Source: Lysobacterales bacterium | Lineage (GTDB): Bacteria; Pseudomonadota; Gammaproteobacteria; Xanthomonadales; SZUA-5 | DNA length: 56,791 nucleotides | NCBI GenBank assembly: GCA_036722245.1 | Contig: DAIMJK010000001.1 | Coordinates: 1 to 56,791, forward strand | Direction: 5' to 3' | Shown here: positions 4,100 through 23,390 of the stretch, piece after piece | Numbering within the stretch: position 1 is the first letter of the stretch | How the letters are laid out: each line of letters begins with the position of its first letter | Made by a program: the position numbers and the translations under genes | Notes under the pieces: generated by a model | What the model was told of the DNA's origin: nothing | The model's input: the letters and a program-made list of their open reading frames with translations, nothing else | Databases searched by the model: none

Positions 4100-4462
4100 C
4101 TACAGCGCCTGTTCCAGCTCCATGATACGCACTTCCGCACGAACCCGGTCCAACATCATCCGGACCAGCAGTCGCGACATGGACTCCCGCATCCCCGCGA
4201 ACAGCCTCCCGAGCAATACCTGAAACGACCCATCGATCGCGGAACGGAACGGCTCGACTTCCGCCGGGAGTATCAGCTCCAGCTCCATATGCAGCGGTTC
4301 GACCTGGTCAAGGCAAGCCTCGATGGTTGGTCGTATCCGTCGCAGCAGAACCTCGACGGTCTCCTCCGTCATTCCCTCCGCGGCGAGCGAGGCGCGCAAG
4401 ACCTGGGCCAACACTGACCACGCGCGGAAAAAAGGATTCGGAAACTGCACCACTTCACCCAT
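4100..4462 (-). CDS. Hypothetical small helical protein
   Basis: ORF in line with the operon. Start chosen at MGEVVQFPNP (ATG 4462, GGAG upstream). No known motif. Confidence 0.45.
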   Translation of the reverse strand: MGEVVQFPNPFFRAWSVLAQVLRASLAAEGMTEETVEVLLRRIRPTIEACLDQVEPLHMELELILPAEVEPFRSAIDGSFQVLLGRLFAGMRESMSRLLVRMMLDRVRAEVRIMELEQAL

Positions 4463-4592
4463 ACCAATCGCACTCCAGTGGACGCCCGCAGAGCAATGCA
4501 GACTCCCGGAACGCACCGCTGCTGTCAACAGCTCGTCCAGCTGGACCCATCATCCGAGGGGGGCCACGCAACCGTCTCGCCCAAGCAAACCG

Positions 4593-5801
4593 TCAATGGC
4601 GCGAGAGTGCGCCCAGTACGGTGTTGCCCGGGAAACTCTTGCCACCCCTGATCAGCTCCTGCGCGGCCTCGATGTCGGGTGTGCAATCCCAGAACAGCAC
4701 GCCCACAGGTCGATCGTTCTCCAAGTAGTAGCAGATCGACGCAGCGGCACCTGATCTGTTATCCAGGACCAATCGAAAGCTGTTCGAGATCAGACCGATT
4801 CCTTCATAACTGCAACCGGCCACCTGCGAATAGAAGTAGGGGAGCGCGTCATAACTCATGGACTTGCCAGCCATCGCACGACCGGCACAGAGCCCAGACA
4901 CGTTGGCATTCTCTTCGTGCTCAGCCCCTACCCATCGATCGAGATCCCGGCAGAAGTATTCGATGACATCGCCCGCCGCGAATACTGCCGGATCTTCCGT
5001 ATTGCAGTACTCACCCACCCTTATACCCCTTCCCACCGCCAAACCGGCGCCCTCTGCCAGCTCCCGATTCGGATCAAGACCAATCCCCGCGATCACGTGG
5101 CGAGCAGCAACATTCTCCCCGGTGTCACAAATCAAAGTGTGCCCGTTGGCGCTCGTCCGGACCCACTCGACCCGCCCTACTCGACGCACTGCCACACCTA
5201 CCTCACCAAGGGAATATTCCAGTCGATCAACCAACTCAGGCGGAAGAAACGACGAACATGGACCCAACCGTGAGCAGAGCAACGAAACCGCAGCACCTGA
5301 CTTGCGAACGCCGGCAGCAATCTCGGTACCTACCAAGCCTCCGCCAACGACACAAATCGGGTTCGAGGAAACAGAAACTGCTCGCACCTGCCGGTAATCA
5401 GCCAGCGTACGGAAATAGACAACACCTCCGTCCTCGCCTGGAAGCCTTCGAGCCCGCCCACCCGTGGCGATAAGCAGCTTCTCGTAAGCGTAAAGTTCAC
5501 CTCGATCATCCCGAGCTATCTTGCGATCACGATCGATGTTCACCACCCGCCGGCCCAGGCAAAGCTCAACGACGCGCCCTCTGGTCGCGCGCCAGATACG
5601 ATCGATCTGCATCCCGTCCCAGAGCGACTTGGACAAGGGCGGTCTGTTGTAAGGTGGATCAGCCTCATCCGAAACAAGGCCAATACTCCCTGCCTTGTCG
5701 GTCAGGCGGATACCCTTGATAGCGGAGTCAGCTGCCACACCTCCGCCAACCACCAAATACTTGAAACGCTTCACCCGAACCTCTCCCAAATTACCCCGCA
5801 T
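4593..5801 (-). CDS. FAD/NAD(P)-dependent pyridine-nucleotide-disulfide-family oxidoreductase, ferredoxin-reductase-like
   Basis: FAD Rossmann YLVVGGGVAADSA, ATGGRARRLP, NAD Rossmann VVGGGLVGTEIAAG, and AAGDV. An alternative GTG start at 5777 is preceded by GGGAGAGG with a 5-nt spacer. Confidence 0.85.
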   Translation of the reverse strand: MRGNLGEVRVKRFKYLVVGGGVAADSAIKGIRLTDKAGSIGLVSDEADPPYNRPPLSKSLWDGMQIDRIWRATRGRVVELCLGRRVVNIDRDRKIARDDRGELYAYEKLLIATGGRARRLPGEDGGVVYFRTLADYRQVRAVSVSSNPICVVGGGLVGTEIAAGVRKSGAAVSLLCSRLGPCSSFLPPELVDRLEYSLGEVGVAVRRVGRVEWVRTSANGHTLICDTGENVAARHVIAGIGLDPNRELAEGAGLAVGRGIRVGEYCNTEDPAVFAAGDVIEYFCRDLDRWVGAEHEENANVSGLCAGRAMAGKSMSYDALPYFYSQVAGCSYEGIGLISNSFRLVLDNRSGAAASICYYLENDRPVGVLFWDCTPDIEAAQELIRGGKSFPGNTVLGALSRH

Positions 5802-5830
5802 GACCGTGACACCGGTCTACTTTATAGGCA

Positions 5831-6514
5831 TCAGCAGAAAAACCATTCAGCCATGAACCTCCCGGTCCACGCCTCACCGAAGCTCTTGTTCATCAACGGT
5901 AGTCCGGGAGAATTGACATGATGATGATGCTTGTAGTTTCGTGAAAACGCAACGAAAGTCGAGACCTCTTCGCCGCTGCGCCGTCGAGGGGATTCCATCT
6001 CCGAACATATTCTCCCCCATACTTCGAAATGCACGGACTCCACCTCGGCAAAAGGCTCCAGCCCAGTCGGTCGAATAAACACATCCCAACCACTGCGACA
6101 CTCCTCGAACCAGCCCGGCGCATCTCCGTCATTGATCAAGTGCGGTCGAGTCAATCTGGCGAGGTCAAAACACCGCTTCGCGAAAGCTCTCGTAGCCCGC
6201 TCCTGGTCCGGCGCCACGGCATCAATGACTGCGACGATCGGCCGCGCCCCCAGACGGACGAACTCCATTGCGTAGATCGGCAACGCGAAATGCTCCGCTG
6301 GATAAAAGAACATCGTGATGATATCTATTTTTCCAGAGCGAATGGATGCTGCCCTGAATTCACCCACACTCCCGACATTGTACCTGCATGAACTGATAGC
6401 CAAAGAACCAGGCAAACTATCCTTCGCCTTCGCGCCCATATGATCAGGCGCTTGAATTTTCGTTACACCGAAAGGCACCAACCCCAAGGTCCCATCGATC
6501 ATATCTGAGAACAT
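5831..6514 (-). CDS. Ferredoxin-dependent bilin reductase (FDBR, PcyA/PebA/HY2 superfamily), divergent
   Basis: IDIITMFFYPAEHFALPIYAMEFVRLGARPIVAVIDAVAP, WDVFIRP and C-terminal NKSFGEAWTGRFMAEWFF parallel the PcyA blocks as I remember them ([43 protein letters not shown]). ATG 6514 follows GGGAGA and lies 1 nt after the upstream stop. Confidence 0.8.
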   Translation of the reverse strand: MFSDMIDGTLGLVPFGVTKIQAPDHMGAKAKDSLPGSLAISSCRYNVGSVGEFRAASIRSGKIDIITMFFYPAEHFALPIYAMEFVRLGARPIVAVIDAVAPDQERATRAFAKRCFDLARLTRPHLINDGDAPGWFEECRSGWDVFIRPTGLEPFAEVESVHFEVWGRICSEMESPRRRSGEEVSTFVAFSRNYKHHHHVNSPGLPLMNKSFGEAWTGRFMAEWFFC

Positions 6515-6515
6515 A

Positions 6516-7025
6516 TCAGTCTCCCGGAACGACTCCGCAATCACGATCCTCAAGGTCGGCCAGGATCACGTCCCATGCCAAAATGGCGCGCGGCCGGAAC
6601 TCGCACTGCGGACGGACACGGCGCACCAACGCACGCGCTTCCTCTGCAGGCAGATCGTGCGCTATCTGCAGTGCGATGCCAAGAACCAATGCGGAACGCG
6701 CCCGCCCCAAGCTACATACGACGTAGGTAAACCGCCGCTGGCGCAGGCACTCGACTGTCTTCGAAACCGCATTCAGGAGGGCATGATATCCATCCTCGCC
6801 AATCTGCGTACGCCAGTTGCTTGACTGATCGACCGCTCCGGAGAAGACGTCGGTAAACCAGTAGTCCCAGGCAGTCAGCCCTTCCTTCATGGCCCCTTCG
6901 TACAGAATGCCGCTTGGCGAACCCGAAACATTGATCAAGGTATCCACACCGACTCGTCGCGCCAACAGCAACTCGCGCTCCAGCGGCAATGCACTGATTG
7001 CAAACCTAAACTCCATATTGAACAT
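6516..7025 (-). CDS. Dual-specificity/tyrosine-phosphatase-like protein (CX5R)
   Basis: P-loop YVVCSLGRARSALV matches C-x2-G-x2-R-S. About 169 aa, the usual DSP size. Confidence 0.65.
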   Translation of the reverse strand: MFNMEFRFAISALPLERELLLARRVGVDTLINVSGSPSGILYEGAMKEGLTAWDYWFTDVFSGAVDQSSNWRTQIGEDGYHALLNAVSKTVECLRQRRFTYVVCSLGRARSALVLGIALQIAHDLPAEEARALVRRVRPQCEFRPRAILAWDVILADLEDRDCGVVPGD

Positions 7026-7029
7026 GAAA

Positions 7030-7674
7030 TTATTGCTGCGTTACCGCTCTCGTCGTGAGCCCCATGGCTTCGCGGATCAGTCCCATCCGTCGACCCACAT
7101 CGGGTACATTGCGACTAGGGTGCGAATACCACAGAAACCCGCCCCAGGTCTCCGCGGACCAGCAACCGGCCTGCGCTATCGATTTCGCCACTCCTGGTAG
7201 ATCGGCCGACGGCGGGTCCGCGAGATCCCACAGAACCGTAAACCGGTCACAGTATGGGTACAGCCGCCGAAACTGCGGTGCCTCGTCCACAGGAAGCAAC
7301 AACAGATACTGCTGAAAGGGTGAGTCTATACCAGGGAGCAGAGAGGCAGCGGCTGTCATCAGTTCCACGGATGAGGGTGGATACGGTGACAGAGCGAGGG
7401 GCAGCTCCAGTCCCTTGAAGGAATCGCCGACTATATTGATTCGGTCTTGATCAGCCAGCAAACCAGGCAACCCGAACCTTGGCCGATTCTGTGCATCAAA
7501 CACCGCTGCGATGCGGGACCTGGGCGACATCTCGACGACCAGGGTCGATCCCCGATCCCCGAAACGTGAACCCTTGAGTGCGTATACTGCCCACGGGTGC
7601 GAGTAGAACACAACATGCAGTCTTCGGGGCTGCGTACTCTTCTGCGGTTGGGGTATGTCAAGCGCCGTTTGCAT
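7030..7674 (-). CDS. Hypothetical protein
   Basis: 214-224-aa ORF between the kinase and phosphatase genes with no recognisable motif. Start is ambiguous (7674 or 7704); both overlap the kinase stop. Confidence 0.45.
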   Translation of the reverse strand: MQTALDIPQPQKSTQPRRLHVVFYSHPWAVYALKGSRFGDRGSTLVVEMSPRSRIAAVFDAQNRPRFGLPGLLADQDRINIVGDSFKGLELPLALSPYPPSSVELMTAAASLLPGIDSPFQQYLLLLPVDEAPQFRRLYPYCDRFTVLWDLADPPSADLPGVAKSIAQAGCWSAETWGGFLWYSHPSRNVPDVGRRMGLIREAMGLTTRAVTQQ

Positions 7675-9394
7675 AAAGCACCAATCGGGAGTTGAGGGGG
7701 TCAATGCGAGTCCAGCTCAGCAACCAGGCGTGGTCGGCACTGACTACCAATCCATCAGCCGCATCGACGAATGAGGCAACGCATCGTGACTGCAAGGCGA
7801 CGTGACTCTGCATAACCTTGCCGCCGTCAGACAACCAGAATACATGACCCGGAGAGCAGCAAAGGCTGCGAACGGGTGATGGCAATGCCACTTTGTTCGG
7901 TTCACCAATACTCGGCACATGCCACAGGTCATACACCCCGCCGCTCGCCATCGTCACGGCAAGCAATGCCGACCGAGCGGCCACCATCTTCACGATCGGA
8001 GCGCCAAGATTGACAGACTTCAGCAACGCGCATTTCGCCGAGTAGGTCGCGATTTCGTTGTTCATCGAGCCCGACGAGATTGCGAACTGACCGTCCTCCC
8101 ACAGGACCGAATGAGCTTCAAGGAGGAAATGTGAAGCCAGCGCCGTCGACTCCTGGTCCGATGGGAAGTGATGCAAACTGATGGCGCGATTGGTCCGCGT
8201 AAACAGGAACTCGTCGCCGATCGCATAGTCGATCACATTCGTACAGCGCTCTGAAATGACTGTACGGGCACTGCGATCAAGATCAAGAACGAAACAATTT
8301 GATTCGATAATGTAGCCCAAGCGCGTGGCTGAAACGACCCTGATCGGACCGGTCTTGGGCAGCACCTTCTTGAAGCTTGCGTCGATACCGCCGATGAGCA
8401 GCATCTCCGACGAGCCCTCAAGCACGATCAGTGGCTTTCCCAGCCGTGTCAGCAGATGCACACGCGAGAACGCAAATTCAACGGATCGACGCGCTACCTC
8501 CACAACTCGCTCGCTTCTGATCGGCTTTTGCACGCCGCCATTGCGGTCCAGATTTAGCCGCTGGCCAACCTGCCGCTCGGGAATCTGTCCCGGCGTGGAA
8601 TTATTCAACATCGACAGAGCACGCTGCGCATCGGCGTACCGGCGCGTTGGGTTCTTCTCCAACAGTCCCGCAATCAGGTCACGCAGGCTGGACGCTGGCA
8701 CCCGTTCCATGGGTACCGGCGAGTGCAGATGGGCACGCGCGACCTCACTAGGCCCCCCGCTGAACGGTAGCTCCCCGGAAGCCAGTTGGAACAACATGAC
8801 TCCGAGGCTGTATAGATCGCTGTTGTAGCTGAACTTTTCATGCAGTCTTTCCGGCGCGGCGTATGCAGGCGTTCCAGATCTGTGGCCACCAGCCATTGCC
8901 TCGCGAAGCGTACAAGTCGAACCAAGATCACCCAACACGAACTGAATCCCGTTCGCGGTCTGCCTGAGAAAGACGTTGTCGGGTTTCAAATCACAATGGA
9001 TCAATTTTCGAGAATGCAGATGCGCGAGCGCGGCGAGGAGATCCGAGGCGCACTGCTGCAAATCCTCAACCCGACACTTGGGGAGGAGCGCGCTAGCTGT
9101 TCCATTCGGGAAGTACTCGTATACAACAAAGCTTGCACCATCCTCGGCATAGAAGAAATCGGAGGCACAGAGGAGGTTTTGGTGCTTGACTTCCAGTGCC
9201 GCCTTGGTCTCCCGTAGATAGACCTGCCCCTTCGCGGGTGGAAAGCACTTGAGCACAACCGTGCGCTGGTCGCGCAAGTCGGTGGCAACGTAGACCCCGG
9301 AAGCAGCTCCCTGATTGAGTTCAGACTCGATTCTATAGCGTCGCGCGAGCACTCGCGCTTCCTTAAGCGCGAAGTCGACGTTCATATTCGTCAC
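7658..9394 (-). CDS. Hanks-type Ser/Thr protein kinase with a ~300-aa C-terminal beta-rich (propeller-like) domain
   Basis: VVLKCF (catalytic Lys), HCDLKPDNVF, LGDLGS, GTPAYAAPE and DLYSLGVMLF. The C-terminal half is rich in short beta-like segments. Confidence 0.88.
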   Translation of the reverse strand: MTNMNVDFALKEARVLARRYRIESELNQGAASGVYVATDLRDQRTVVLKCFPPAKGQVYLRETKAALEVKHQNLLCASDFFYAEDGASFVVYEYFPNGTASALLPKCRVEDLQQCASDLLAALAHLHSRKLIHCDLKPDNVFLRQTANGIQFVLGDLGSTCTLREAMAGGHRSGTPAYAAPERLHEKFSYNSDLYSLGVMLFQLASGELPFSGGPSEVARAHLHSPVPMERVPASSLRDLIAGLLEKNPTRRYADAQRALSMLNNSTPGQIPERQVGQRLNLDRNGGVQKPIRSERVVEVARRSVEFAFSRVHLLTRLGKPLIVLEGSSEMLLIGGIDASFKKVLPKTGPIRVVSATRLGYIIESNCFVLDLDRSARTVISERCTNVIDYAIGDEFLFTRTNRAISLHHFPSDQESTALASHFLLEAHSVLWEDGQFAISSGSMNNEIATYSAKCALLKSVNLGAPIVKMVAARSALLAVTMASGGVYDLWHVPSIGEPNKVALPSPVRSLCCSPGHVFWLSDGGKVMQSHVALQSRCVASFVDAADGLVVSADHAWLLSWTRIDPLNSRLVLYANGA

Positions 9395-10052
9395 TACCGA
9401 AGCCTCCTTCGTGCAGTTCCTCCAGTGCGCCGACTCTCGCCGCGGAAGAAATCAGGAAGAGTGAACTGTCGCTACCGGTGAGCGGTGAGGAAACCTCAAT
9501 CCCATCCAGCTCTTCTCTCGCAATTTCGGAAAACAAACCACCAAGCATGCCCGCCATCATGAAATCGACCGGCTCCCGGAGTTCCGACAATGCGTCCGAG
9601 AAAACACTGTTGCGCAATGTTGCCCTCAGATAGCCGTGCCGCGGAGCCGTGTTCAGGTCGAACTCGATCAAACCCCACCCGCCGAAGTTCAACATCGCCG
9701 CAAGTTGTGCAAGAAAGTCTTCAACCGATATCTTGTCTATGCGGCGCTGAACAACTGTCTGCGCCTGTTGGTTCAGGGTGCGAAACATCCGTTTTCCCCA
9801 AAGCTGGCCACAGCGTTTAAGAACGATCTTCCAAGCCGGCCCAGCCTCGTAGGAAAGGGCTGCGTGGATGCCACGCATTATATCGGTACACAGGAAGATG
9901 ACGCGCGTACCACTCGGGTCCACGACCGTGCCTTCATAGAGGTCGAAGGTGCAGGCGGTATGCGATACAAGCTGGTCGAGTCGGTCGATTCCAATCCTGT
10001 CAGTATTTCCGGTGCGGGGTACGTTAGATACAGCCAAGTCATTCATCATCAT
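9363..10052 (-). CDS. V4R-like domain protein (cysteine-less paralog)
   Basis: FGGWGLIEFDL...GYLRATLRNSVF...PVDFMMAGMLGGLFSEIAREELDGIEVSSPLTGSDSSLFLI has the same layout as the V4R protein at 12933-13592, but Cys is replaced by D/S. Its ATG shares one base with the upstream TAA (TAATG at 10052). Confidence 0.55.
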   Translation of the reverse strand: MMMNDLAVSNVPRTGNTDRIGIDRLDQLVSHTACTFDLYEGTVVDPSGTRVIFLCTDIMRGIHAALSYEAGPAWKIVLKRCGQLWGKRMFRTLNQQAQTVVQRRIDKISVEDFLAQLAAMLNFGGWGLIEFDLNTAPRHGYLRATLRNSVFSDALSELREPVDFMMAGMLGGLFSEIAREELDGIEVSSPLTGSDSSLFLISSAARVGALEELHEGGFGSDEYERRLRA

Positions 10053-10663
10053 TACTCCGCGGCCAGCGTGTCGATCGCCTGCTGCAAATATGGTTCAAAA
10101 AGCGCGAAGCTGTCCTGAGATAGCGCCTGCTGATAGTTCCTTTTCAGAACGATGTAGGTTTCCAATATTGCCTGGCGCTTTTGCGGTACGTTACCGATAG
10201 CGCCGGCCGCAGGCGTATCAATGCTCCTACGGGAACCGAATATCGCGGTGGACTTTTCGACCTCGCGCTTTGGAAACATGAAGGATTGAAGAATGGTCCG
10301 TAACCAGAGCAGGAGCTTGTCGCGAAACCAGTCATGATCGCGGATCAGCATCGCGGCGGTAGCATATACGCTGACGGTGGTGATATCGCGGGGCGCTTTC
10401 GCAGCAGCTGCTTCGTGATGCTCTTCGAAGGCGTAGATTGCGAAGATCTCACGCACGGTCTTCTCAACCACCCGTTGCTCGTGTTGCTCCACTTCTCTGG
10501 CGGCATCTACATAGGCAACACCGTTGGAGACCTGCCGCAGGTAGCTTGAGTACTCCTCAGAGTTCAAATGACGTCCCTCGCATCGTTTGAAAAGGTCCTG
10601 GATGGCCGAATTCCGACGCAGGCTTTCCGACGTTGATTTGTATTCCTTTGCTGGCGTAGGCAT
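10052..10663 (-). CDS. Phycobiliprotein-like globin (single domain, lacks the canonical bilin-attachment Cys)
   Basis: GRHLNSEEYSSYLRQVSNGVAYVDAAREVEQHEQRVVEKTVREIF...AKAPRDITTVSVYATAAMLIRD parallels allophycocyanin ARYLSPGELDRI..G..R...A......RII..A...LF...C-x-RD-x4-LR..Y....GD. Here Pro replaces the Cys before RD. Confidence 0.6.
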   Translation of the reverse strand: MPTPAKEYKSTSESLRRNSAIQDLFKRCEGRHLNSEEYSSYLRQVSNGVAYVDAAREVEQHEQRVVEKTVREIFAIYAFEEHHEAAAAKAPRDITTVSVYATAAMLIRDHDWFRDKLLLWLRTILQSFMFPKREVEKSTAIFGSRRSIDTPAAGAIGNVPQKRQAILETYIVLKRNYQQALSQDSFALFEPYLQQAIDTLAAE

Positions 10664-10675: not shown

Positions 10676-12922
10676 TTAATTCGTTGATGGGGACGGATCA
10701 CGAGCGGCCTCGCTGATCGCTTGATTTGTGGCCGCGGACATGGCGAAGCGCGCGAGATCGCGGTCATTCTCACCATGTTCCGCCTCGGCCGGTGTTACGC
10801 TGATGTGCTTGACATTCAGTGAACCCGACCAGGGCACCATTTCGAAATAGGAGCTTGCGGTCACTTCACTCAGCGGACACGCAAGCACCTGAAGGCGGCG
10901 GCGCTCTTTGTCTGCGTTGGCCTTCATTTCGGGCGCCCGTACCGCGTCGCTCGGCTTGTCGGTCGGCGGGGGATCCTGTTCGGTGACCACATGCGTGGCT
11001 CGTGGGGCCTGATTCACCGGAGGCGCTTTTCCGAGCACGGTAGCGGTGAATGACCCGCTGGCTGAAGCCATCTGTTTTCGAAGTAGCTGCGCTTCCAACG
11101 CCAGTTTCTCTACCCTTGCCGCAGCTGCCTTTTCCTTTGCCTGCTCAAGCTCCACATTGAGTGCCGCCATCGCCTCTGACAAGTCGCGTTGCTCGGCCTC
11201 TGCTGCGATGCGCAGACCATTGGCTTCAGCCAGGGCCGCTTCTCTCTGCTTGATCCTGGCCTTGAGCTCATCGTTCTCGTTGCTGAATCGGGTTTGCTCG
11301 GACAGCGCGTCTGTCGATTTCCTGGTCTCCGATCCAAGCGCCAGCTTGACGGAATTCAATTCACTTCGAACTGCATCCACTGCATCGACGGCTGCGAGCA
11401 GTTCTCTCTTCAAGCCTTGCGTTTCAGACTCGTACCGATCGCGTAATGCCACTTGTTCGGCATGAGCTTCATGAAGCCCTGTGCGGGCCAACGACAGTTC
11501 AGTTTTGATCTCCGCCAGCTGGCTTTCATACTTTTTCGCTTCGAGTAGTAGCCCGGTCTTGCCGTTCCGCAATTCTTCCAGTTCGGCAACGTCGGCGGCA
11601 GATTGCGAGCTTTGCGCGGAAGCCGTGCTGGTCAACTGGCGGAATTCCTTTTCCAGTTTCTCCAGCGCGCTTTCGAGCGCGACCCGCGCCGTGCTGGATT
11701 CCTCCAGCGCAAGGGCCAACGTCTCTGTTTCGTTGCGCAGCTTCTCCTCGAGCTCAGCCATCGCCAGGTTGTGCTGGTGCACGTGCTCATCGGCCTGAAT
11801 GCGCAACTGTTCTCGAATCAGCTGCAGATCCTGTTCGCACTGCTGCGCGTTCGTTTTCGCGTAGTCTCGTTCAGAGGTCAGGTCTGCGAGTTCCGCTTCG
11901 AGCCGATTGTGTTCTGCAGTACTGGCTTGTAGTTGCTCTCGTAAATGATCTAGCTCTGCTCGCACCGACTCCGCCGCCGCCGCCTGCAGTGTCAGCTCGG
12001 CACACTGCCTGGAACGTTGCTCCAACTGCTCAAGCTGGAGCAGATAGTCTGTTTCCAATGACTTTTGCTCTTCACGAAGCACATCAATCTGCCCATACAG
12101 ATCCTTCTTCTCGAGTTCGTGGGCTAGATGGTGTTCCTCGATCTGTTCCTGCAGACGCGCATTCCGAGCGTGTGTGTCGGCGATCTCATCGCGCAATGAT
12201 TCCGCTTCCACCCCAACCGCGGAGATCTCTTGTAGTGAAGCTTCCTGCCCCCCCGCAGGCAGAGTTGTGTCGCCTGATGCCAGCGCGCTCGCCTCGAGCT
12301 CGGCGACTTTCTCCTTCAGCAAATCACGTTCGTACGTCAGCTGATGCATGCTTACCGCCAGCGCATCCAGATCCGCCGAACCCTGATCGATCTGCCTGGC
12401 GCCCGGGCTTTCGCGCTCGGCAAGCTGAATCAGCGATCCCAGGCGCTCGTTGAGTGCGTCCAGTCGACGCTCAATCTCAAGTGTACCTTCGCCGATCTTG
12501 TTGACCAGGTCCACAGACAGAAACTCTCGTTGCCTGGCGATACGTTCCAGCTCGTCGGCGAGCGTCTGGACTTGCTCGAGCGCACGCTCGTAGGCCGCCT
12601 TTGTCTGATCACCCGAGTTCTCTGCTTCACGCCTGGAACTGGCGAAAGCCTCATCGTCGGCATGCTGGCTGTAGTCCAGACCTACCGCAGCTTGAAAGAC
12701 CGGCTTGGCATCGGAGTCAAACGCCCATTGCGGCAGCTTGTCCATCTCGAACGCCGCCTCGCCGCCATCGAAGGTCTCGGCTTCGCGGGACAGGACGTTC
12801 ATTTCGGAATCATGGCCACTTTGTGCTGCGCCATCGGAACTCTTATCACTGCCGACAGCGTGGGCAACGGTCGCGAAGAAGCTTCGGAGATGGGCGATCT
12901 GGGTCTTTTCGAGCTTGTCCAT
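10676..12922 (-). CDS. Long coiled-coil protein (SMC/myosin-tail-like rod) with non-coiled termini
   Basis: About 520 aa of heptad-like E/L/Q/A/R-rich sequence (e.g. LEQVQTLADELERIARQ, LREQLQASTAEHNRLEAELADL). ATG 12922 is preceded by GAGGAG and lies 10 nt after the upstream stop. Confidence 0.7.
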   Translation of the reverse strand: MDKLEKTQIAHLRSFFATVAHAVGSDKSSDGAAQSGHDSEMNVLSREAETFDGGEAAFEMDKLPQWAFDSDAKPVFQAAVGLDYSQHADDEAFASSRREAENSGDQTKAAYERALEQVQTLADELERIARQREFLSVDLVNKIGEGTLEIERRLDALNERLGSLIQLAERESPGARQIDQGSADLDALAVSMHQLTYERDLLKEKVAELEASALASGDTTLPAGGQEASLQEISAVGVEAESLRDEIADTHARNARLQEQIEEHHLAHELEKKDLYGQIDVLREEQKSLETDYLLQLEQLEQRSRQCAELTLQAAAAESVRAELDHLREQLQASTAEHNRLEAELADLTSERDYAKTNAQQCEQDLQLIREQLRIQADEHVHQHNLAMAELEEKLRNETETLALALEESSTARVALESALEKLEKEFRQLTSTASAQSSQSAADVAELEELRNGKTGLLLEAKKYESQLAEIKTELSLARTGLHEAHAEQVALRDRYESETQGLKRELLAAVDAVDAVRSELNSVKLALGSETRKSTDALSEQTRFSNENDELKARIKQREAALAEANGLRIAAEAEQRDLSEAMAALNVELEQAKEKAAAARVEKLALEAQLLRKQMASASGSFTATVLGKAPPVNQAPRATHVVTEQDPPPTDKPSDAVRAPEMKANADKERRRLQVLACPLSEVTASSYFEMVPWSGSLNVKHISVTPAEAEHGENDRDLARFAMSAATNQAISEAARDPSPSTN

Positions 12923-12932
12923 GGCGATCTCC

Positions 12933-13592
12933 TCAGCCGAGTTTTTCCATGATGTCACGGGCGGAAGCGCCTTCTTCCCGCCAGAATTCGGCCGCGTTCA
13001 CCCTGGTTTCATCGCTGATCAGAAATTTGCAAACATCATTTCCCATTGCGTAGCATTGAACCTCAATGCTTTGCAAGTCGCGCTGATGGAAATAGGAAAA
13101 CGCACCAGCAAACAATCCGGCATATAGATGACACACCGGACGTCCAGCCATCTTCATGGACTTGGCCACTGCGGAGTTCCGGATCTCCACCATGGTGATA
13201 TCGTTGTCGCTGAAACTCAGATCCAGGGTCCAACCACCGAAACCCTCTACGGTCAGTGGCCACCACCAGCATTCCCAAATGAAGGCGGGATTCATCTGCC
13301 AGATATCCAGCCGTCCGCCACCGAACTCGTGGCGCATCCGGTTATTGAAGCGTTTCATGTCCTGCAGCGCCCACTCCTGACCGCAGCGGTACATCAACAG
13401 GCCGCTGCCGGTACCGACCTCTTCCTCGATTCCCAGATGCAGCCCGTTGATGAAGGATTCCGAGACCCGCGCCGCACGCTGCCCATCCCGAAGGTAGATC
13501 GCCCCCTCTGAACGCTCGTGGCGAAAGAACTCCTCGGGCATGTAGTAGTTGTGATAACCGGCAACTCCACCGGCAACTGTATCAATGGCCAT
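12933..13592 (-). CDS. V4R (4-vinyl-reductase-type) small-molecule-binding domain protein
   Basis: FGGWTLDLSF...VEIRNSAVA...RPVCHLYAGLFAGAFSYF...SIEVQCYAMGNDVCKFLI matches the classic V4R G-W-G ... C-H ... E-x2-C-x3-G-x3-C-x-F pattern. Confidence 0.72.
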   Translation of the reverse strand: MAIDTVAGGVAGYHNYYMPEEFFRHERSEGAIYLRDGQRAARVSESFINGLHLGIEEEVGTGSGLLMYRCGQEWALQDMKRFNNRMRHEFGGGRLDIWQMNPAFIWECWWWPLTVEGFGGWTLDLSFSDNDITMVEIRNSAVAKSMKMAGRPVCHLYAGLFAGAFSYFHQRDLQSIEVQCYAMGNDVCKFLISDETRVNAAEFWREEGASARDIMEKLG

Positions 13593-13601: not shown

Positions 13602-14069
13602 TCAGGCGGTCTGAACGTCACGAACGCTGAAATCAACGTCCCTGAGCTGCATTATGGAAGAGCGGATGATTATCTTTCTTGCCTCAACCAGCACTTCACC
13701 GGTCACCGGGTGAAGTATCGGCACTGTGGTTCGCTGGCCGATCAAGCTCTCGAGCTCGGAATACGACTCGACGTAGAGACCATCTGGCAGCGCCACTTCC
13801 ACGCCATCACTGATCACTCGAGCCTGACAAGACAAGCGGCTGTTTGGCTGTGCTCCGGTCAATATGCTCAAGGCGAGCTTTTCTCGCTGCGAGGGCGGGG
13901 TCAGGCACTTCTCTCCGGCGACCACGTAAACGTGGCAAGTCGCGCACAGGCCGCGTCCGCCACACAGCATCTTCACCGGAACCTGGTTGGCCAGCAATGC
14001 ATCCAGTAGCCTGGATTCGGTTGGTAAATCGACTTTGGTTCCGTCAGCTCTAAAGGCAATTGTTTTCAT
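13602..14069 (-). CDS. [2Fe-2S] ferredoxin with a ~55-aa C-terminal extension
   Basis: Cys36-x5-Cys42-x2-Cys45-x35-Cys81 (MLCGGRGLCATCHV ... RLSCQ). The ATG overlaps the upstream stop (ATGA at 14066-14069). Confidence 0.88.
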   Translation of the reverse strand: MKTIAFRADGTKVDLPTESRLLDALLANQVPVKMLCGGRGLCATCHVYVVAGEKCLTPPSQREKLALSILTGAQPNSRLSCQARVISDGVEVALPDGLYVESYSELESLIGQRTTVPILHPVTGEVLVEARKIIIRSSIMQLRDVDFSVRDVQTA

Positions 14070-17000
14070 TGGGCAGCAACCTCAGGCGCATAGCTTTCGC
14101 GTTCAATCAGATCGAGTATTGGCAACAACGCCGGCCGGTGTCTGCCGGGGACCGCGGACACGAGCTCTCGCAGCCAGGTCATGGCCGAGGAGGGATCGGT
14201 GGCGATCAGGGTTTCCGTGTTGATGCTCACACCCATCCGCATGGCTCTGGAACTCTGCCGCGCGCGATCCAGCAGGTCGTGCGGAACATCGATGACTTGA
14301 GCCAGTGCAATCGCCAGGGTGCTGGCTGCCTGCATTTCCGGCAACAATGCGTTGATCTCGCGCAATCGATCAAGCAGTCCCTGTGCCGGGCTTCCCAAGC
14401 GGTCCAGATATTCAATCGAAAGTTGCAGCGCGATACCAATGTGTTCGGCCGGGTACCCTTGCCAAATGCCGTGTTGAGTTCTCCAGAGCCACGCCCTAGC
14501 GCTGGCGAACGGCGCGCCTTCGCGTAACGGAGCTGTTTCCAGAGCCAGTGTCTGCAGCGCCAGGACGAACTGTGCGTTTCGCATGGGCGAGGCGTAGCCA
14601 GCTCCGCGCGGAGGCAGTATGTGCTCCTGTCTGAGCATCAGGGCATCAGCAAATCGTGCCTGGGTCTGGCGCAAGCTCAGCATGTCCGGGCATTGCCAGC
14701 CGGTGGCGCGGGCTACCGGAATGTCTCCCGGCATCGGTGTGGTGAGGCCGTCGTCCTCGGCCTGGACCCAGCGATCGGCACGCCACAGCCAGTGTGCGGC
14801 AGCCAATTCCGAATGCACGACGCAGTAGATGTCAAAACCATGGGGCTCTTCGCTGCTTGCAATGGTGGAGCAGCGATTGAGTACTGTCCCGATTTCGTCC
14901 AAGACGTCGGCAACTGCGGCATTGAGCGGCTCGTCAGTATCGTCTCGCAGCACTTGGCTCAAACCTGGCAGCACCTCATCCCATTCGTTCGCGAACGACT
15001 CATTGACCAAGGGGCTGAGCATCAACGTGCGTGCGACGAAAGCACGGCTCCTGGTCCCGGCGGCGCGACCCGCTGCGGCTGCGAGCAACGCCGAGGCGAA
15101 CTGGCGCCAGTTGGCCTCCATTTCTGGATCGGTCGAGAACACTGCATCGGTCGATGCAAAAACCCTTCGACCGATTCGGTGCAAGGCTTCGGCATGGCGA
15201 GTCATTGCCATGGCGACTTCGGTCAGCTGCGTCCATGCCTCTCGCGCACCGCAGCGGCTGCCGTTTGACAATACTCTGCCGAGCTCGTCGAGAACCAGCC
15301 GCCAACTGCGAGGCTTGAACGGGACATGGCTGATCAGGCAGGTCAACAGATAGCGGCAGACCTCGATGTCCGCGCAATGGGACGCCGGGCCATGCAACGC
15401 TTGAACCATGAAGCGAATCAGAAGTTGCTGATCACGGAGTCCTTTCTCACGATACAGCCACTGCTCATCAGGTGGGCCTTCATGCAGCTCGGGCAACAGA
15501 TCAGCCACCGCGATGGCCATCTCGCTCTGTCGCGCGTGCAGTGTGTGACCCAGGGCAGTCAGCCGGAGGCGGTCCAGGCCCACTTCCAGCAGACACAGCC
15601 AGAACCCGCTCTGCGCCGGCGTCAATGACTGCTGCGTTATGACACAAAGCTTGAACCAGGCGCTCTCGATCTCTGACAAGGCGTGCCGATCCAGTAGTTT
15701 TTGCTGGATCGGCATGGTGCGCGACCACGCCAGCGCCAGATCGCCATGCTCGTTCAAGCCGTCCGCGGCGGACCGCCAGAGGTCCAATAGACCGCGTCCC
15801 AGCGAGTCGAGGGTGCTGGGTTCCACGCGTTCAAGCGCTCGGTGGTGCGATGGTGATGATCGACGCGTTCCGAACAGCGCGTCCCACAGCGGACTCGGCT
15901 GGTCGAACGTATCGAAGCTCAGAACCGCGTCGCTGGAAAGCTCACGCGGAATGTCGATCGACAGCGCCTTGCGATAGACGGTCGACAACACATCCAGCGC
16001 AACACAGTACTCGCTGTAGTCAAGAATACTCCGCAATTCGGCGGCGAGTTTCGCCAGATTGCCTTGCATGACTGGCTCATCGCGGTTGACCAGATAGATG
16101 CCGATGGTCGACAACCACCACCAGGTCATCGCAGCACTGGGGGAAGCAGTTGCTCCACCCAGCACCTGGCCCAGTCTGAGCAAGGTAAACTCATTGTCTC
16201 GCAGGGTTGAGGCGCGACCGCGTTCACCGATCCTCTCGGCGTACTCGGGGAACTCGGACAGGGTAGCCGCCGAGGCTGATACTGCCATCAAGTGCGCGCG
16301 ACGAACAATCTTCACCCCGGCGCCCAGTTGCGGCAGGCTCGCGCAGAAGGCGCTCAACAACCCAAACGGTCGCCCGGTTGCGTACGCGCTGTTGATGGCC
16401 ATTTGGTGACGCCAGTCCCTCAGCGCATCGATAGCGCGATCGGTATCCTGCTCATCTCCCGCGGCCAACAGGACCCGTGCCGTCCAGGCGCGCAACTCGG
16501 CGTACGCATGATGCTCTTGATAGCAGCAGAGCACCTGCAGGAGTTCGAAGCAACGTTGCAGCCAGACCTTGGTGCCCCCTATCTCGCACGTTGGCGCGGT
16601 CAGCGCGAAGCTGCAATCATCCAGTTCGGCAAGGTCTCGGCAAATGTCCGGCAACAGCTCGAGCAAAGCCACAAGCTGGCTGTCCGTGCTCAACCTATCA
16701 TCCTCGTTTGCGCACGAGAGCATCGATCGGGCGTAGCTCGAAAGTGTCGCACCGCTCTCCCAGATGCTCTCGCCGTGGGCGCACAGGAAGGGCATCCGCA
16801 TCCGAAACAGCTGTTGACGCGCTCCGGTGTCATGACCGAAGGCCGCCGCTCGGCGAGCCTCCACCAAGGCATGCCGAATGCGCTGATTCAAACCGGTCGC
16901 GTCCGCGCCGGCGCTGGTATCGATAACCGCAAGCGCTGGCTGGGACGAGGCTTCGGCACTGACCAACAAGACCGCCCGGTCAAGGAAGTCAAGCGCATCG

Positions 17001-18028
17001 GACAACGGGTCGAGATAATTTCGCTCCCAGCGCCGCCGCATCACCATCAGTATCTGCCGCTGTGCTTCCACCCAGCGCTCTCGGAAGTCGCTGCTGCTCG
17101 GCGCGCCGATTCCGGCATGACGAAACTGCCCGCACAGGCGCGAGTTCAGTTGCGCCTCGGGCCTGAGTTGTGCCAGGCACAACAGCGGCAGCAGGTCACT
17201 CAGGATTCCCGCATCCGCCGGCAAGTATGGCCTCGCGTCCGCGATAACATCGGCGATGAAGTCAAAGCGTGGCACCGCGCCGACCAAGGCCGCGACCGCA
17301 GCGCCGAACGCATGGCTCAGACGTTTCGATGCGCGCGCCGTGAAAGCTCGATCCAACCGCAGCAGCAGCAAGGACCACAGTCTGGCATCGAGCTTGAAGC
17401 TGCCCAGCATGCGATCGAGGAACAGGCGCACGAGTTCGACGTCGACGAGCGCTCCTGCATCCTCGGCGCATGCGCTCCAGTCAGTCAACAGCTGTGCGAG
17501 TGTCTGTTCCATGGCTTGATAGTCCGGCGCGGAACCCTCGCCGAAGAACTCGAAGGCATACCGGACGCCGACCAACACTTCGGCGCTGATGACCGTGGCA
17601 TCGGCACCGATCCGGGTCCTCTGAGAGGCAACCGCGGCAAACTCAGTCAGTTCCCACAGGCTTACCTCTGCCAGACAGCGGGCACGGCACGAAAGCTTGG
17701 TTGAAATCAGATGCAGAACTACTTCAGCAACGCATTGCGCGAACTCGCTCCGATCGCCCTGAAGCACCACCCAGGCGCGATCAGAGAGTGGCTCGTTGCT
17801 GCCTCCTCCACGCAGACGCTTGAGCACATCGGCAATGATGCGTGCGACCTGTTCAGCATGGTTCTGGGGGCCGTCTTTACGCAGGCTTAAATGCCGCAGT
17901 ACCTCGGAGGGGTCGATCTGCTCAAGGGCGTCGCAGATCTCCGAGCACAGCGGCGCGGAAATCTCACCGGGCAAGCGGTCGGCTTCAAAGCCATGGAACG
18001 CGGGAGCCAAAGGGGAAGTCGCCATCAT
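14066..18028 (-). CDS. 1320-aa Trp/Cys-rich all-helical repeat protein, related to the poly-globin protein upstream
   Basis: Uninterrupted ORF. Start at ATG 18028, directly after the upstream TAG (TAGGATGATG). The N-terminal module AEQVARIIADVLKRLRGGGSNEPLSDRAWVVL resembles AERCVRDVTIVLRMIALSLGDGGSDPASQLRAWSSV of the 767-aa protein. No NTPase or enzyme motif seen. Confidence 0.75.
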   Translation of the reverse strand: MMATSPLAPAFHGFEADRLPGEISAPLCSEICDALEQIDPSEVLRHLSLRKDGPQNHAEQVARIIADVLKRLRGGGSNEPLSDRAWVVLQGDRSEFAQCVAEVVLHLISTKLSCRARCLAEVSLWELTEFAAVASQRTRIGADATVISAEVLVGVRYAFEFFGEGSAPDYQAMEQTLAQLLTDWSACAEDAGALVDVELVRLFLDRMLGSFKLDARLWSLLLLRLDRAFTARASKRLSHAFGAAVAALVGAVPRFDFIADVIADARPYLPADAGILSDLLPLLCLAQLRPEAQLNSRLCGQFRHAGIGAPSSSDFRERWVEAQRQILMVMRRRWERNYLDPLSDALDFLDRAVLLVSAEASSQPALAVIDTSAGADATGLNQRIRHALVEARRAAAFGHDTGARQQLFRMRMPFLCAHGESIWESGATLSSYARSMLSCANEDDRLSTDSQLVALLELLPDICRDLAELDDCSFALTAPTCEIGGTKVWLQRCFELLQVLCCYQEHHAYAELRAWTARVLLAAGDEQDTDRAIDALRDWRHQMAINSAYATGRPFGLLSAFCASLPQLGAGVKIVRRAHLMAVSASAATLSEFPEYAERIGERGRASTLRDNEFTLLRLGQVLGGATASPSAAMTWWWLSTIGIYLVNRDEPVMQGNLAKLAAELRSILDYSEYCVALDVLSTVYRKALSIDIPRELSSDAVLSFDTFDQPSPLWDALFGTRRSSPSHHRALERVEPSTLDSLGRGLLDLWRSAADGLNEHGDLALAWSRTMPIQQKLLDRHALSEIESAWFKLCVITQQSLTPAQSGFWLCLLEVGLDRLRLTALGHTLHARQSEMAIAVADLLPELHEGPPDEQWLYREKGLRDQQLLIRFMVQALHGPASHCADIEVCRYLLTCLISHVPFKPRSWRLVLDELGRVLSNGSRCGAREAWTQLTEVAMAMTRHAEALHRIGRRVFASTDAVFSTDPEMEANWRQFASALLAAAAGRAAGTRSRAFVARTLMLSPLVNESFANEWDEVLPGLSQVLRDDTDEPLNAAVADVLDEIGTVLNRCSTIASSEEPHGFDIYCVVHSELAAAHWLWRADRWVQAEDDGLTTPMPGDIPVARATGWQCPDMLSLRQTQARFADALMLRQEHILPPRGAGYASPMRNAQFVLALQTLALETAPLREGAPFASARAWLWRTQHGIWQGYPAEHIGIALQLSIEYLDRLGSPAQGLLDRLREINALLPEMQAASTLAIALAQVIDVPHDLLDRARQSSRAMRMGVSINTETLIATDPSSAMTWLRELVSAVPGRHRPALLPILDLIERESYAPEVAAQ

Positions 18029-18029
18029 C

Positions 18030-20288
18030 CTAGTCCTGAGCCACGCCATAGACCGCGTCCAGCAACGCCCTGATCCGCGCTCTGGATTGCGGCGGGTAGC
18101 TTTCAATCTGCTTCTCGATGCAATCGGGCAGATGCTCTGTCATCGTCCGGGTTGGCACAGCCAGAAACGGGAGTAAGTGCACGCTGCTCCAGGCACGCAG
18201 CTGAGAGGCAGGATCCGAACCTCCGTCGCCAAGCGACAGCGCGATCATCCGCAAAACGATGGTCACGTCGCGGACGCAGCGTTCGGCAGCCTGATCCATC
18301 GCCAGCTCGGTCCACAGAGGCAGAGATTGCAGGTGTGCAATCGCGCCGCCCGCGATCGTCGAGCTGTTGCTGAACAGCGGCTCGGCGATCCCCAAGTCGG
18401 AAGCACAATCCAGCAAGTGCGCCTTGAGGGCACCCAGGCCATCCGTGAATGAGGGATCTCCCGATTCTTCCAGGAGCGCACAGGATTCACTCACGACCCG
18501 GGTCAATGCCTCAACTCTTGCAGCGGGATCAGCTTCGCACAGCAGTTCCACCAGTGGTGCCGTTGTGTGTGCGAGATAGCGGCCAGCAATCGCCCGACCG
18601 AGGCCTTCTTCCTCGGGCAACAACAGGGCGAACAAGATTTGCCGCGCGCAACCCGCAATCAATGGATCGGCGTTGCCCACGTTCAGTTGCAGCTGCACGC
18701 GGGCTGCGCTTACTGCGTGATAGCGGGGTGATTGCGCGCCTATATCGGCAAGGTAAGTCGACAAATGTTCGTTGTTTGCGGCGAGGGAGTCGGCGATCTC
18801 GTCAGCCCCAATTTCCTCCATCAGCCTCGCTCGGAGGCCGGCCTCGACACCGCAATCAGGATCCACTTGGCCGATGATCCACGCCCACCATCGCTCTGCC
18901 GTGAGCGAGTAGTCGCCGCGACATGACAACTCGGCTGCGCGCGTGAGCAACAGGCAAACCCACCGCTCCGCCGCAGCAACCGCTACCGTGTCGAGAGGCT
19001 TGTGCCGCGCCACGATCCTGGTCGCAGCCTGGGCGATTGCTGGCAACAAACGCGAAACACTGGCGAACTGGTGCGCCGCGGCCACGGCGATTCTCAGCAG
19101 CAGATCAAGATCGTCCCCGTAGTGAACACCCAATCGCTTGCTCGCCGTGGCGTGCAGTGTTCGTATCGCGGTTTCGGCGTGTTCAGAATCGCCAGTGGGG
19201 AGTCTGGTGCTGGCGCTCTCCAGCCAGTACTCAGCGATGGATGAGCGCAAACCGGTGTTGCCCGTCCCCAGATCGACGGCCGCAAAACGCAGCACATCCG
19301 TGAAAACATCACAATACAGGGCCGCATCGCTCGCTGAGGAGTCTTTGGCAACGACCATTGCCGCGCTGCGCGCAATCTCCGGTGCCAGCACGAATACCTG
19401 CAGCGCGCTCCGCGCATCGGTATCGGCGCAAGCAAGCGAGTACATCGCGGAGGCCGCGGTTCGCGCCGGAGACCATGCCAGCTGCTCAGCCGTGCCGCGC
19501 AGCAAGCCGGCAAAGGTAGCTCGCCATAGACTGCCGGAATAGCGGCCGATGTAACGACCCACCCGATCGAAGATCCAGCTCATCCATGCGCGTTGTGCCG
19601 CAACCACCGTCGGTGCCGCCAAGGCGGCCTGTGCAGCCCCCAGAATCATGCTCATGTCGCGAATGCACTTTCCTTCGCCGGATGGACCGTAGGTCAGCAC
19701 TGCCTGCGGATGTGAACTGGCTACGGCTTCCCAGGCAATACCCGCGATTGCAGCTGCGTGAGTGGCCAGGACTGCCCCCGCGGACCCATTCCGCACGAAG
19801 CTGCGCGCACCGCGCAGGTGATCCACGCAGAGTTCGGCTGCTTCGGCGGACAAGCGCTGCTGCGTGGCAAGAACGGCGTAGTCCAGCAGCAGCGCGGAAG
19901 CATCGGCGAATTCCATCCCGGCGCGCGCAGCCAACACAAGCTGACTCAACACACTGACTTCCAGACCATGCCGGTCTCCGCCCGCTACAGATGCGCTCAA
20001 ACCGCGCAACAAGAGCGCAAGGTCGCGCCGACAAGACCGCGTCAACTGGGCGTTGTCGATGCGCCCGGAGACCAGGAAGGCTTCAGCAGCCTGCTCGGCT
20101 GCCTGCGCAGCGATCTCATCCGCCGCGCGGTACATTGCCGACGCGCAAGCAAGGCGGTGGCCCAACGTCAGCGCGCGGCAACGTTCGGCGAAAGCGCCGC
20201 TCGAGAATGTATCCGGTGAGTCTACCCAGAACGTGCGCTCCAGCGACTGCGTAGCGACTTCCCTCGTCGCGCCATTTTCTCCCAACAT
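18030..20288 (-). CDS. Multi-domain protein with six tandem ~120-aa phycobiliprotein-like (globin) modules
   Basis: Recurrent motif: SCRRDLALLLRGLSASVAGGD, KCIRDMSMILGAAQ, YCDVFTDVLRFAAVDLGTGN, WVCLLLTRAAELSCRGD, GCARQILFALLL, RCVRDVTIVLRMIALSLGDGG. ATG 20288 follows GAGGAAGG. The alternative ATG 20333 overlaps the EAL gene stop by 14 nt. Confidence 0.75.
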   Translation of the reverse strand: MLGENGATREVATQSLERTFWVDSPDTFSSGAFAERCRALTLGHRLACASAMYRAADEIAAQAAEQAAEAFLVSGRIDNAQLTRSCRRDLALLLRGLSASVAGGDRHGLEVSVLSQLVLAARAGMEFADASALLLDYAVLATQQRLSAEAAELCVDHLRGARSFVRNGSAGAVLATHAAAIAGIAWEAVASSHPQAVLTYGPSGEGKCIRDMSMILGAAQAALAAPTVVAAQRAWMSWIFDRVGRYIGRYSGSLWRATFAGLLRGTAEQLAWSPARTAASAMYSLACADTDARSALQVFVLAPEIARSAAMVVAKDSSASDAALYCDVFTDVLRFAAVDLGTGNTGLRSSIAEYWLESASTRLPTGDSEHAETAIRTLHATASKRLGVHYGDDLDLLLRIAVAAAHQFASVSRLLPAIAQAATRIVARHKPLDTVAVAAAERWVCLLLTRAAELSCRGDYSLTAERWWAWIIGQVDPDCGVEAGLRARLMEEIGADEIADSLAANNEHLSTYLADIGAQSPRYHAVSAARVQLQLNVGNADPLIAGCARQILFALLLPEEEGLGRAIAGRYLAHTTAPLVELLCEADPAARVEALTRVVSESCALLEESGDPSFTDGLGALKAHLLDCASDLGIAEPLFSNSSTIAGGAIAHLQSLPLWTELAMDQAAERCVRDVTIVLRMIALSLGDGGSDPASQLRAWSSVHLLPFLAVPTRTMTEHLPDCIEKQIESYPPQSRARIRALLDAVYGVAQD

Positions 20289-20319
20289 GTTGCCTTCCTC
20301 GTCAGATGTGTATCGGTGG

Positions 20320-23312: not shown

Positions 23313-23390
23313 GTCAAAGACGTTTGCCAAAGTACGACTGATCCGGACCTGGCCTGAGCAGAGGGCAAGGGCCATGTCGCGCAGTGTTGC

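Follow-up and report, generated by a model that had tools for sequence, protein, structure and literature searches.

A divergent FDBR, probably of the pre-1 pre-PcyA type, in an uncultured Lysobacterales-like gammaproteobacterium

Pre-PcyA proteins have been proposed as ancestral to the enzyme by which cyanobacteria form their antenna pigment. Three pre-PcyA lineages were defined in non-photosynthetic bacteria by Rockwell, Martin and Lagarias in 2023 (PMC10151467). The position of PcyA His88 is occupied by Asn in pre-2, of which CAP_1520 is a member, and by Thr in pre-3, of which MBL9008304 is a member, and Asp105 is kept in both (PMC10151467; PMC13446030). The pre-1 proteins lack the PcyA residues (PMC10151467). 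Their own residue pattern and chemistry were described by Frascogna et al. in Protein Sci. in 2026 (PMC13446030; preprint 10.64898/2026.05.08.723791): PcyA Asp105 is typically replaced by Glu, His88 most often by Thr (as in POZ53557) or Asn (as in MCC5789364), and HY2 Asp256 typically by a Ser that is present in MCC5789364 and missing in POZ53557. Published pre-1 clusters encode a heme oxygenase (HO), an Fe-S protein, two V4R proteins and a BBAG (PMC10151467; PMC13446030), and pre-2 is encoded in a cluster of three genes, the other two being those of a B12-binding protein and a globin (PMC10151467).

The pre-1 protein MCC5789364, from an Opitutales metagenome-assembled genome (MAG), converts biliverdin to 3(E)-phytochromobilin in vitro by a two-electron reduction; its E91Q variant was still active, with the 3Z isomer as its product, and for pre-1 the authors postulated an alternate proton donor whose identity was not given (PMC13446030). 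POZ53557, the sole Thr-type pre-1 tested, yielded no more than trace phytochromobilin in co-expression (PMC10151467). The published pre-1 assays were run on heterologous PetF/PetH of cyanobacterial and phage origin, and the regiospecificity of ferredoxin-dependent bilin reductases (FDBRs) can flip through single substitutions (PMC13446030).

We analyzed an FDBR gene in a window of 56,791 nucleotides (the whole stretch of DNA studied) that belongs to a MAG of 3.37 Mb in 395 contigs, 82.5% complete, recovered from stromatolite metagenomes.

Fold and active-site columns of the FDBR

The FDBR gene and the codons discussed below are as follows.

5831-6514, minus strand: FDBR, probably a pre-1 type pre-PcyA, 227 amino acids (PF05996, PcyA 2D1E match, POZ53557 match, tree, AlphaFold2 model)
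6314-6316, minus strand: Thr67, codon ACG, in the PcyA His88 column (HMMER and MAFFT alignments, sequence read)
6263-6265, minus strand: Glu84, codon GAG, in the PcyA Asp105 column (HMMER and MAFFT alignments, sequence read)
5921-5926, minus strand: His197-His198, in the PcyA Gln215/Gln216 columns (family conservation)
5909-5911, minus strand: Ser202, in the PcyA Asp220 column (alignment; translation KHHHHVNS)

The ATG of the FDBR gene (6514-6512) lies one base past the TGA stop codon of the upstream gene (6518-6516), with a GGGAG sequence 7 nt upstream of it. An in-frame TTG start at 6553 was rejected, because translation from there would run into the upstream gene and because homologues have N-termini that match the ATG at 6514. 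The protein scored 44.6 bits against Pfam Fe_bilin_red (PF05996, gathering cut-off 31 bits) over model positions 15-227 of 228, and thus belongs to the FDBR superfamily, the threshold being passed across essentially the full domain. The NCBIfam equivalogs for PcyA (NF002760) and PebA gave 34.8 bits (cut-off 206) and 26.3 bits (cut-off 263), respectively. Among solved structures, the best sequence match found by phmmer in the PDB was Synechocystis PcyA (slr0116, 2D1E; E 2e-6). An AlphaFold2 model computed from a 20-sequence alignment reached a pLDDT of 94.9 and a pTM of 0.92, and showed the alpha/beta/alpha sandwich of PcyA, PebA and HY2; in a Foldseek comparison, PcyA structures were the best matches (TM 0.84-0.86), with HY2 at 0.83-0.84, PebA and PebB at 0.82, and RCCR at about 0.7. 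The product of ORF 5831-6514 is an FDBR in fold and family, with an identity of only 33-48% to any other sequence found.

The phmmer alignment placed FDBR residues 38-226 on PcyA residues 58-244, PcyA numbering being counted from Leu58. It paired the segment IDIITMFFYP with the region of PcyA His88 and set LPIYAMEFV over PcyA LPLFGCDIV. Independently of HMMER, MAFFT L-INS-i, run on PcyA together with 143 family representatives, returned identical columns for Thr67 and Glu84. The sequence-only reading of this DNA had arrived at the same Thr (ACG) and Glu (GAG) from a by-eye alignment to Synechocystis PcyA; the printed phmmer alignment reproduced that pairing, so that the alignment was not shifted, and neither His nor Asp stands at the catalytic columns. 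It had also described the C-terminal FGEAW...F block as retained, and we found SFGEAWTGRFMAEWFF paired with the PcyA C-terminal block in the phmmer alignment. The column of PcyA Glu76 is ambiguous, being filled by Ala56 in the HMMER alignment and by Arg59 in the MAFFT alignment, neither of which is acidic. The FDBR is thus devoid of the PcyA catalytic set, Glu76, His88 and Asp105 all being replaced. In the structural model, Thr67 and Glu84 are carried by predicted strands 63-72 and 80-88, respectively.

The Ser202 column appears to be the position of Arabidopsis HY2 Asp256. This is supported by POZ53557, which has an Ala in this column of the BLASTP alignment, in agreement with the report that it lacks the usual Ser.

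Family-wide signature and lineage placement

When 1.84 billion representative proteins were scanned with HMMER, 226 clusters were returned at E<=1e-3, and residues were counted in the 143 representatives of at least 180 amino acids among the 150 nearest clusters. At the Asp105 column, these carried Glu in 135 cases, Gln in seven and Asn in one, and no Asp-type sequence was present among the 150 nearest representatives. The His88 column held Asn (75), Thr (36), Ser (17) or Ala (9) but never His, and the Asp220 column held Ser in 96 and Thr in 29 of the 143. The minimum number of changes on the family tree was 39 for the His88 column and eight for the Asp105 column. Because these columns match the published pre-1 pattern, Thr67 and Glu84 are the normal signature of a lineage and not a peculiarity of the Lysobacterales FDBR. 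A Glu near-fixed at Asp105 next to a labile His88 column is in line with the published picture and does not change it.

The two His residues at 197 and 198 are near-invariant in this set (129 and 138 of 143, respectively), and Pro203/Gly204 are further near-invariant positions specific to the family. The His pair may be hypothesized to provide the alternate proton donors of pre-1; no paper on a function of PcyA Gln216 was found in the literature.

The phylogeny was computed with IQ-TREE on 159 rows (LG+C20+F+G4, SH-aLRT support), the sequences outside the Glu-type family being Synechocystis PcyA (residues 58-244), the PcyA of phage P-SSM4 and a Pelagibacter-phage PcyX-like protein. The FDBR paired with a metagenomic sequence, P0002 (SH-aLRT 97), inside a clade of eight rows (96) shared with MAG proteins from Lysobacterales and Xanthomonas, which was itself nested in a 106-row clade (95) containing the POZ53557 representative, Opitutaceae MAGs and Agitococcus lubricus. 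The entire Glu-type family was split from PcyA/PcyX at an SH-aLRT of 97. POZ53557.1, from Methylovulum psychrotolerans, belongs to the 90% cluster of match P0034, and a direct BLASTP comparison with the FDBR gave 36% identity over 226 amino acids (E 1e-48). Our guess is that MCC5789364 is represented in this set by P0035, a 234-amino-acid protein of the Asn/Glu type in the Opitutaceae clade with a Glu at residue 91, as in MCC5789364; only then would the identity of the FDBR to MCC5789364 be 38%.

The FDBR combines Glu84 at the Asp105 column, Thr67 at the His88 column, a Glu76 column without a conserved Glu, and a supported clade with POZ53557 in a tree of Glu-type, PcyA and PcyX-like sequences. 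Taken together, these features make it very probable that ORF 5831-6514 encodes a member of the pre-1 pre-PcyA lineage in an uncultured Lysobacterales-like gammaproteobacterium. To this known lineage it adds a new but fairly divergent Thr/Glu/Ser-type member, from a stromatolite organism. The suggestion of the sequence-only reading that the enzyme belongs to an early-branching heterotroph FDBR lineage was borne out by the tree and the POZ53557 match. The alignment and phylogeny that it called for separated the Glu-type family from PcyA and PcyX, and PebA, PebB, PebS, HY2 and RCCR were compared with the FDBR by structure and HMM scores only.

PebA, PebB, PebS and HY2 were excluded on account of the residue signature, the gene context, the HMM scores and the structure comparison, and pre-2 and pre-3 on account of the signature, the context and the lack of Asp in the 143 nearest representatives. 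A true PcyA was rejected because the equivalog score lies far below its cut-off and the Glu76/His88/Asp105 set is not conserved. A pre-3 protein would share the Thr at the His88 column, but the FDBR has Glu instead of Asp at the Asp105 column. Pre-2 was rejected because Thr and Glu stand in place of Asn and Asp, and because no B12-binding family match was obtained among the scanned neighbours.

Gene cluster and electron supply

The FDBR gene lies in a long co-directional run of genes, listed here in the order of transcription, and a heme oxygenase gene is found elsewhere in the window.

13602-14069, minus strand: Fe-S protein, an adrenodoxin/putidaredoxin-type [2Fe-2S] ferredoxin (Fdx) with a C-terminal extension of about 55 amino acids (PF00111; TIGR02007)
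12933-13592, minus strand: V4R protein (PF02830, E 1.6e-17)
10676-12958, minus strand: coiled-coil protein, the variable gene of the cluster
10052-10663, minus strand: BBAG-type phycobiliprotein-like globin (PF00502, 36.8 bits, cut-off 22.2)
9363-10052, minus strand: second, divergent V4R protein (PF02830, 18.6 bits, under the cut-off)
7658-9394, minus strand: Ser/Thr kinase (Pkinase, E 4.5e-36)
7030-7704, minus strand: unknown protein, at a conserved position between the kinase and phosphatase-like genes
6516-7025, minus strand: CX5R phosphatase-like protein (VCSLGRARS motif in the translation)
5831-6514, minus strand: the FDBR
4593-5801, minus strand: putidaredoxin-reductase-type ferredoxin-NAD(P)+ reductase (FdR; PF07992, E 2e-46; 1Q1R, E 4.6e-43)
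33012-33914, minus strand: heme oxygenase (PF01126, 29.8 bits, cut-off 23)

The order from Fdx to FDBR was found in at least nine loci from three phyla or classes, namely in Lysobacterales MAGs (L003, L005), a betaproteobacterial MAG (L008), Verrucomicrobiota MAGs (L009-L011, L013) and two metagenomic contigs (L024, L025), and the BBAG gene is syntenic in all of these. The Fdx and the first V4R protein are 78-79% and 81% identical, respectively, to their counterparts in L003 and L005, and the divergent V4R protein has syntenic homologues in all related clusters. The kinase, unknown and phosphatase-like genes just upstream of the FDBR keep their order in gammaproteobacterial, betaproteobacterial and Verrucomicrobiota loci; the L024 equivalent of the phosphatase-like gene gave a weak DSPc match. 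The locus is thus the published pre-1 cluster with three extra conserved genes, the Fer2 protein, two V4R proteins and Phycobilisome-family globin being co-directional and the FDBR being its last biosynthetic gene. The heme oxygenase gene lies 27 kb from the FDBR, beyond multi-globin and gas-vesicle genes, and its homologues in L003-L005 are at most 7 kb from the FDBR; it was the only heme oxygenase detected in the whole MAG, at the completeness given above.

Neither a phytochrome PHY domain nor a reaction-centre gene was detected in the MAG, absences that are provisional at 82.5% completeness. Because of these two results, the cluster globins are likely the only recognisable bilin acceptors in the MAG, and the BBAG is a likely acceptor. 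The distribution of the FDBR is patchy: it is carried by three of 41 related genomes, its own included, and is missing from both genomes of the same genus, one of which is 99% complete.

The FdR gene begins 29 nt downstream of the FDBR. A promoter and terminator scan of positions 4300-7200 gave nothing beyond shuffled expectation, a result that is no proof but is consistent with co-transcription of the phosphatase-like, FDBR and FdR genes. FdR resembles putidaredoxin reductase (1Q1R), as listed, and Fdx matched TIGR02007 fdx_isc (E 4e-13), putidaredoxin (E 2e-9) and the E. coli Fdx 1I7H (E 1.3e-10), its translation containing the motif Cys36-X5-Cys42-X2-Cys45-X35-Cys81. NCBIfam equivalog scores on FdR and Fdx were all far under their cut-offs. 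Putidaredoxin reductase and putidaredoxin form a class I P450 redox pair, so that the two protein classes are known partners.

An FdR orthologue (48-50% identity, E<=1e-111) was present in three of 25 same-family genomes, which are exactly the FDBR carriers, and always directly downstream of the FDBR; the remaining 22 genomes gave no FdR match at E<=1e-20. Among the loci compared, FdR was not found in pre-1 clusters outside the Lysobacterales clade, and neither PMC10151467 nor PMC13446030 mentions a reductase in pre-1 clusters. A clade-specific FdR that travels with the FDBR is the one new point over published work. The adjacency of FdR and FDBR, the matching protein classes and the co-occurrence in three of 25 genomes suggest a dedicated chain from NAD(P)H through ferredoxin to FDBR in the Lysobacterales clade. 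The sequence-only reading had named this Fdx and this reductase as cognate partners, and the same three observations speak for that pairing; a single island that was gained or lost could, however, also explain the co-occurrence. We propose only tentatively, with slightly less than even confidence, that the Lysobacterales pre-1 FDBR gained its own NAD(P)H supply via FdR and Fdx, with His197/His198 as a possible alternate proton donor.

If this proposal is true, the FDBR would natively receive its electrons from the conserved "Fe-S protein" that pre-PcyA and cyanobacterial BBAG clusters encode, and the locus would encode the first self-contained non-photosynthetic pathway from NAD(P)H to bilin. 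FdR offers a concrete candidate for the native donor chain where assays have used PetF/PetH, and FdR, Fdx and FDBR together could give a compact NAD(P)H-driven phytochromobilin system in heterologous hosts.

Predicted product and comparison with known systems

Since the pre-1 protein MCC5789364 makes 3(E)-phytochromobilin, this is also the likely product of the FDBR, by analogy across about 35-38% identity. The sequence-only reading had held that neither the product nor the electron count could be inferred, which the known chemistry of MCC5789364 now softens, although the transfer at this level of identity keeps part of that caution in place. In the proposed mechanism, the heme oxygenase (33012-33914) would supply biliverdin IXalpha, which would be bound by the FDBR. 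Electrons would pass from NAD(P)H to FdR (4593-5801), then to Fdx (13602-14069) and on to the FDBR, where the A-ring diene of biliverdin IXalpha would be reduced by two electrons to 3(E)-phytochromobilin. Glu84, the counterpart of MCC5789364 Glu91, may act as proton donor or positioning residue and set the 3E stereochemistry, and the phytochromobilin would be passed on to the cluster globins.

It is unlikely, but worth weighing, that a pre-1 enzyme with Thr instead of Asn would form another product, either PEB by four electrons as in pre-3 or a bilin of other stereo- or regiochemistry. The His88 column has changed often, no fewer than 39 times on the tree; one substitution at this position turned KflaHY2 from PCB to PEB (PMC13446030); pre-3, with Thr at the His88 column, proceeds to PEB (PMC10151467); and no active Thr/Glu/Ser-type pre-1 has been characterised so far. 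However, the Thr-type POZ53557 yielded a phytochromobilin-like adduct, in trace amounts (PMC10151467), and the PEB step of pre-3 hinges on Glu217, in a different region (PMC13446030). Moreover, Thr and Asn swap freely among close relatives with the same cluster, which argues for their functional equivalence.

We consider it improbable that the protein is a weakly active or inactive homologue that binds, chaperones or delivers biliverdin to globins. Such a role would fit the lack of any canonical PcyA catalytic residue and the very low activity of POZ53557, whose cognate BBAG-1 behaved alike in its presence and in its absence (PMC10151467), but MCC5789364, with the same Glu and apparently the same Ser, is active in vitro (PMC13446030), and the strong conservation of the Glu, the His pair, Fdx and the reductase of the clade is hard to explain without redox chemistry. 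Finally, a pre-3 (Thr-type) or pre-2 protein, or a divergent true PcyA with Asp105 changed to Glu, is highly improbable: Thr at the His88 column is a conserved pre-3 residue (PMC10151467) and HO, Fe-S, V4R and BBAG genes occur in pre-3 clusters too, but Asp105 is kept in pre-2 and pre-3 (PMC10151467; PMC13446030) and absent from this column in all 143 nearest representatives, the FDBR matches the pre-1 protein POZ53557 directly and falls far short of the PcyA equivalog cut-off, and pre-3 occurs almost exclusively in Myxococcales (PMC10151467), the relatives of the FDBR being instead in gammaproteobacteria, betaproteobacteria and Verrucomicrobiota.

The FDBR and its redox neighbours can be compared with four described systems. 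FdR and Fdx resemble the putidaredoxin reductase/putidaredoxin pair in their sequence classes and in the Cys-X5-Cys-X2-Cys...Cys motif; unlike that pair, they have no P450 or dioxygenase partner, their adjacent client being the FDBR, and the cluster Fdx carries its C-terminal extension. The pre-3 protein MBL9008304 shares the Thr at the His88 column and a cluster of HO, Fe-S, V4R and BBAG genes, but has Asp105, and its product, formed in a four-electron reduction, is 3(E)-PEB (PMC10151467; PMC13446030).

PcyA (slr0116, 2D1E) is the best structural match and has the FGEAW block in common with the FDBR, along with conserved positions for Pro, Trp and Arg. It differs at Gln215/Gln216, replaced by His-His in the FDBR, and at Lys221/Thr222, replaced by Pro-Gly, and the FDBR is not expected to yield phycocyanobilin.

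The closest systems are the pre-1 proteins POZ53557 and MCC5789364, with which the FDBR shares the fold, the Glu at the Asp105 column, the Thr of POZ53557, the Ser of MCC5789364 if the Ser202 column is indeed that of HY2 Asp256, and a cluster containing an Fe-S protein, two V4R proteins and a BBAG. In contrast to the published pre-1 clusters, the heme oxygenase gene is here 27 kb away and not beside the cluster, and the Lysobacterales sub-clade adds FdR directly after the FDBR.

Large proteins and the V4R-BBAG slot

Two large proteins are encoded upstream of the ferredoxin (Fdx) gene, and a third gene occupies the slot between the V4R and BBAG globin genes:

14066-20333 region, 767-aa protein with at least two Phycobilisome-family stretches
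14066-20333 region, 1346-aa protein, searched by Pfam scan
10676-12958, 760-aa coiled-coil protein rich in Glu, Ala and Leu

The Pfam scan returned no match to the 1346-aa protein. Large-protein homologues were also observed upstream of Fdx in two Lysobacterales MAGs (L003 and L005), in the related locus L012, and in a metagenomic contig (L025, 1339 aa). The V4R-BBAG slot holds a gene of just 188-236 aa in other clusters. The conservation of the 760-aa protein with L003 and L005 is limited to its C-terminal ~75 residues.

Flanking genes and locus rearrangement

The genes following the multi-globin gene are:

20320-30351 region, PAS-GGDEF-EAL protein, next after the multi-globin gene
20320-30351 region, gas-vesicle genes (GvpL/F, AAA proteins), past the PAS-GGDEF-EAL gene

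The gas-vesicle genes stand between the bilin cluster and its heme oxygenase. In L003, the GGDEF-EAL, heme oxygenase, LuxR-type regulator, and kinase genes lie on the opposite side of the bilin reductase (FDBR) gene relative to the window, and so the locus is rearranged between the two. In the related pre-1 cluster of L025, a BLUF blue-light sensor gene (10719-11213 of L025) directly adjoins FDBR.

Reductase cofactor

The second dinucleotide-binding motif of the reductase encoded directly downstream of FDBR (4593-5801), VVGGGLVGTEIA...AVSLLCSRL, carries Ser-Arg at the strand end, without an acidic residue there. In Rossmann folds, such a replacement may point to NADPH over NADH, and this motif suggests that the reductase may prefer NADPH.

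Kinase and phosphatase-like genes

Three genes separate the second V4R gene from FDBR:

6516-9394, Ser/Thr kinase, unknown protein, and CX5R/DSPc-like phosphatase

This set, in which the unknown protein measures ~180-225 aa across loci, was found in gamma-/betaproteobacterial and Verrucomicrobiota pre-1 clusters (the window, L003, L005, L008, L009, L011, L024, and L025); the phosphatase homologue was not detected in the Verrucomicrobiota pre-1 clusters. Published descriptions of pre-1 clusters list HO, Fe-S, V4R, and BBAG only, and none of these three genes. The pre-1 FDBR of Agitococcus lubricus DSM 5822 (L006, NZ_QAON01000007.1) shares 38% identity with the window's FDBR and is also accompanied by the upstream unknown and phosphatase-like genes. 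As a publicly deposited cultured strain, A. lubricus is a possible laboratory model for work on the cluster.

A kinase gene is likewise found in the Synechocystis slr0144-0152 cluster, which includes SpkG according to PMC10151467, where SpkG is reported to phosphorylate that cluster's ferredoxin Fd5 (reference 58 there). Regulation by a kinase may thus be an ancestral trait of the cluster ferredoxin.
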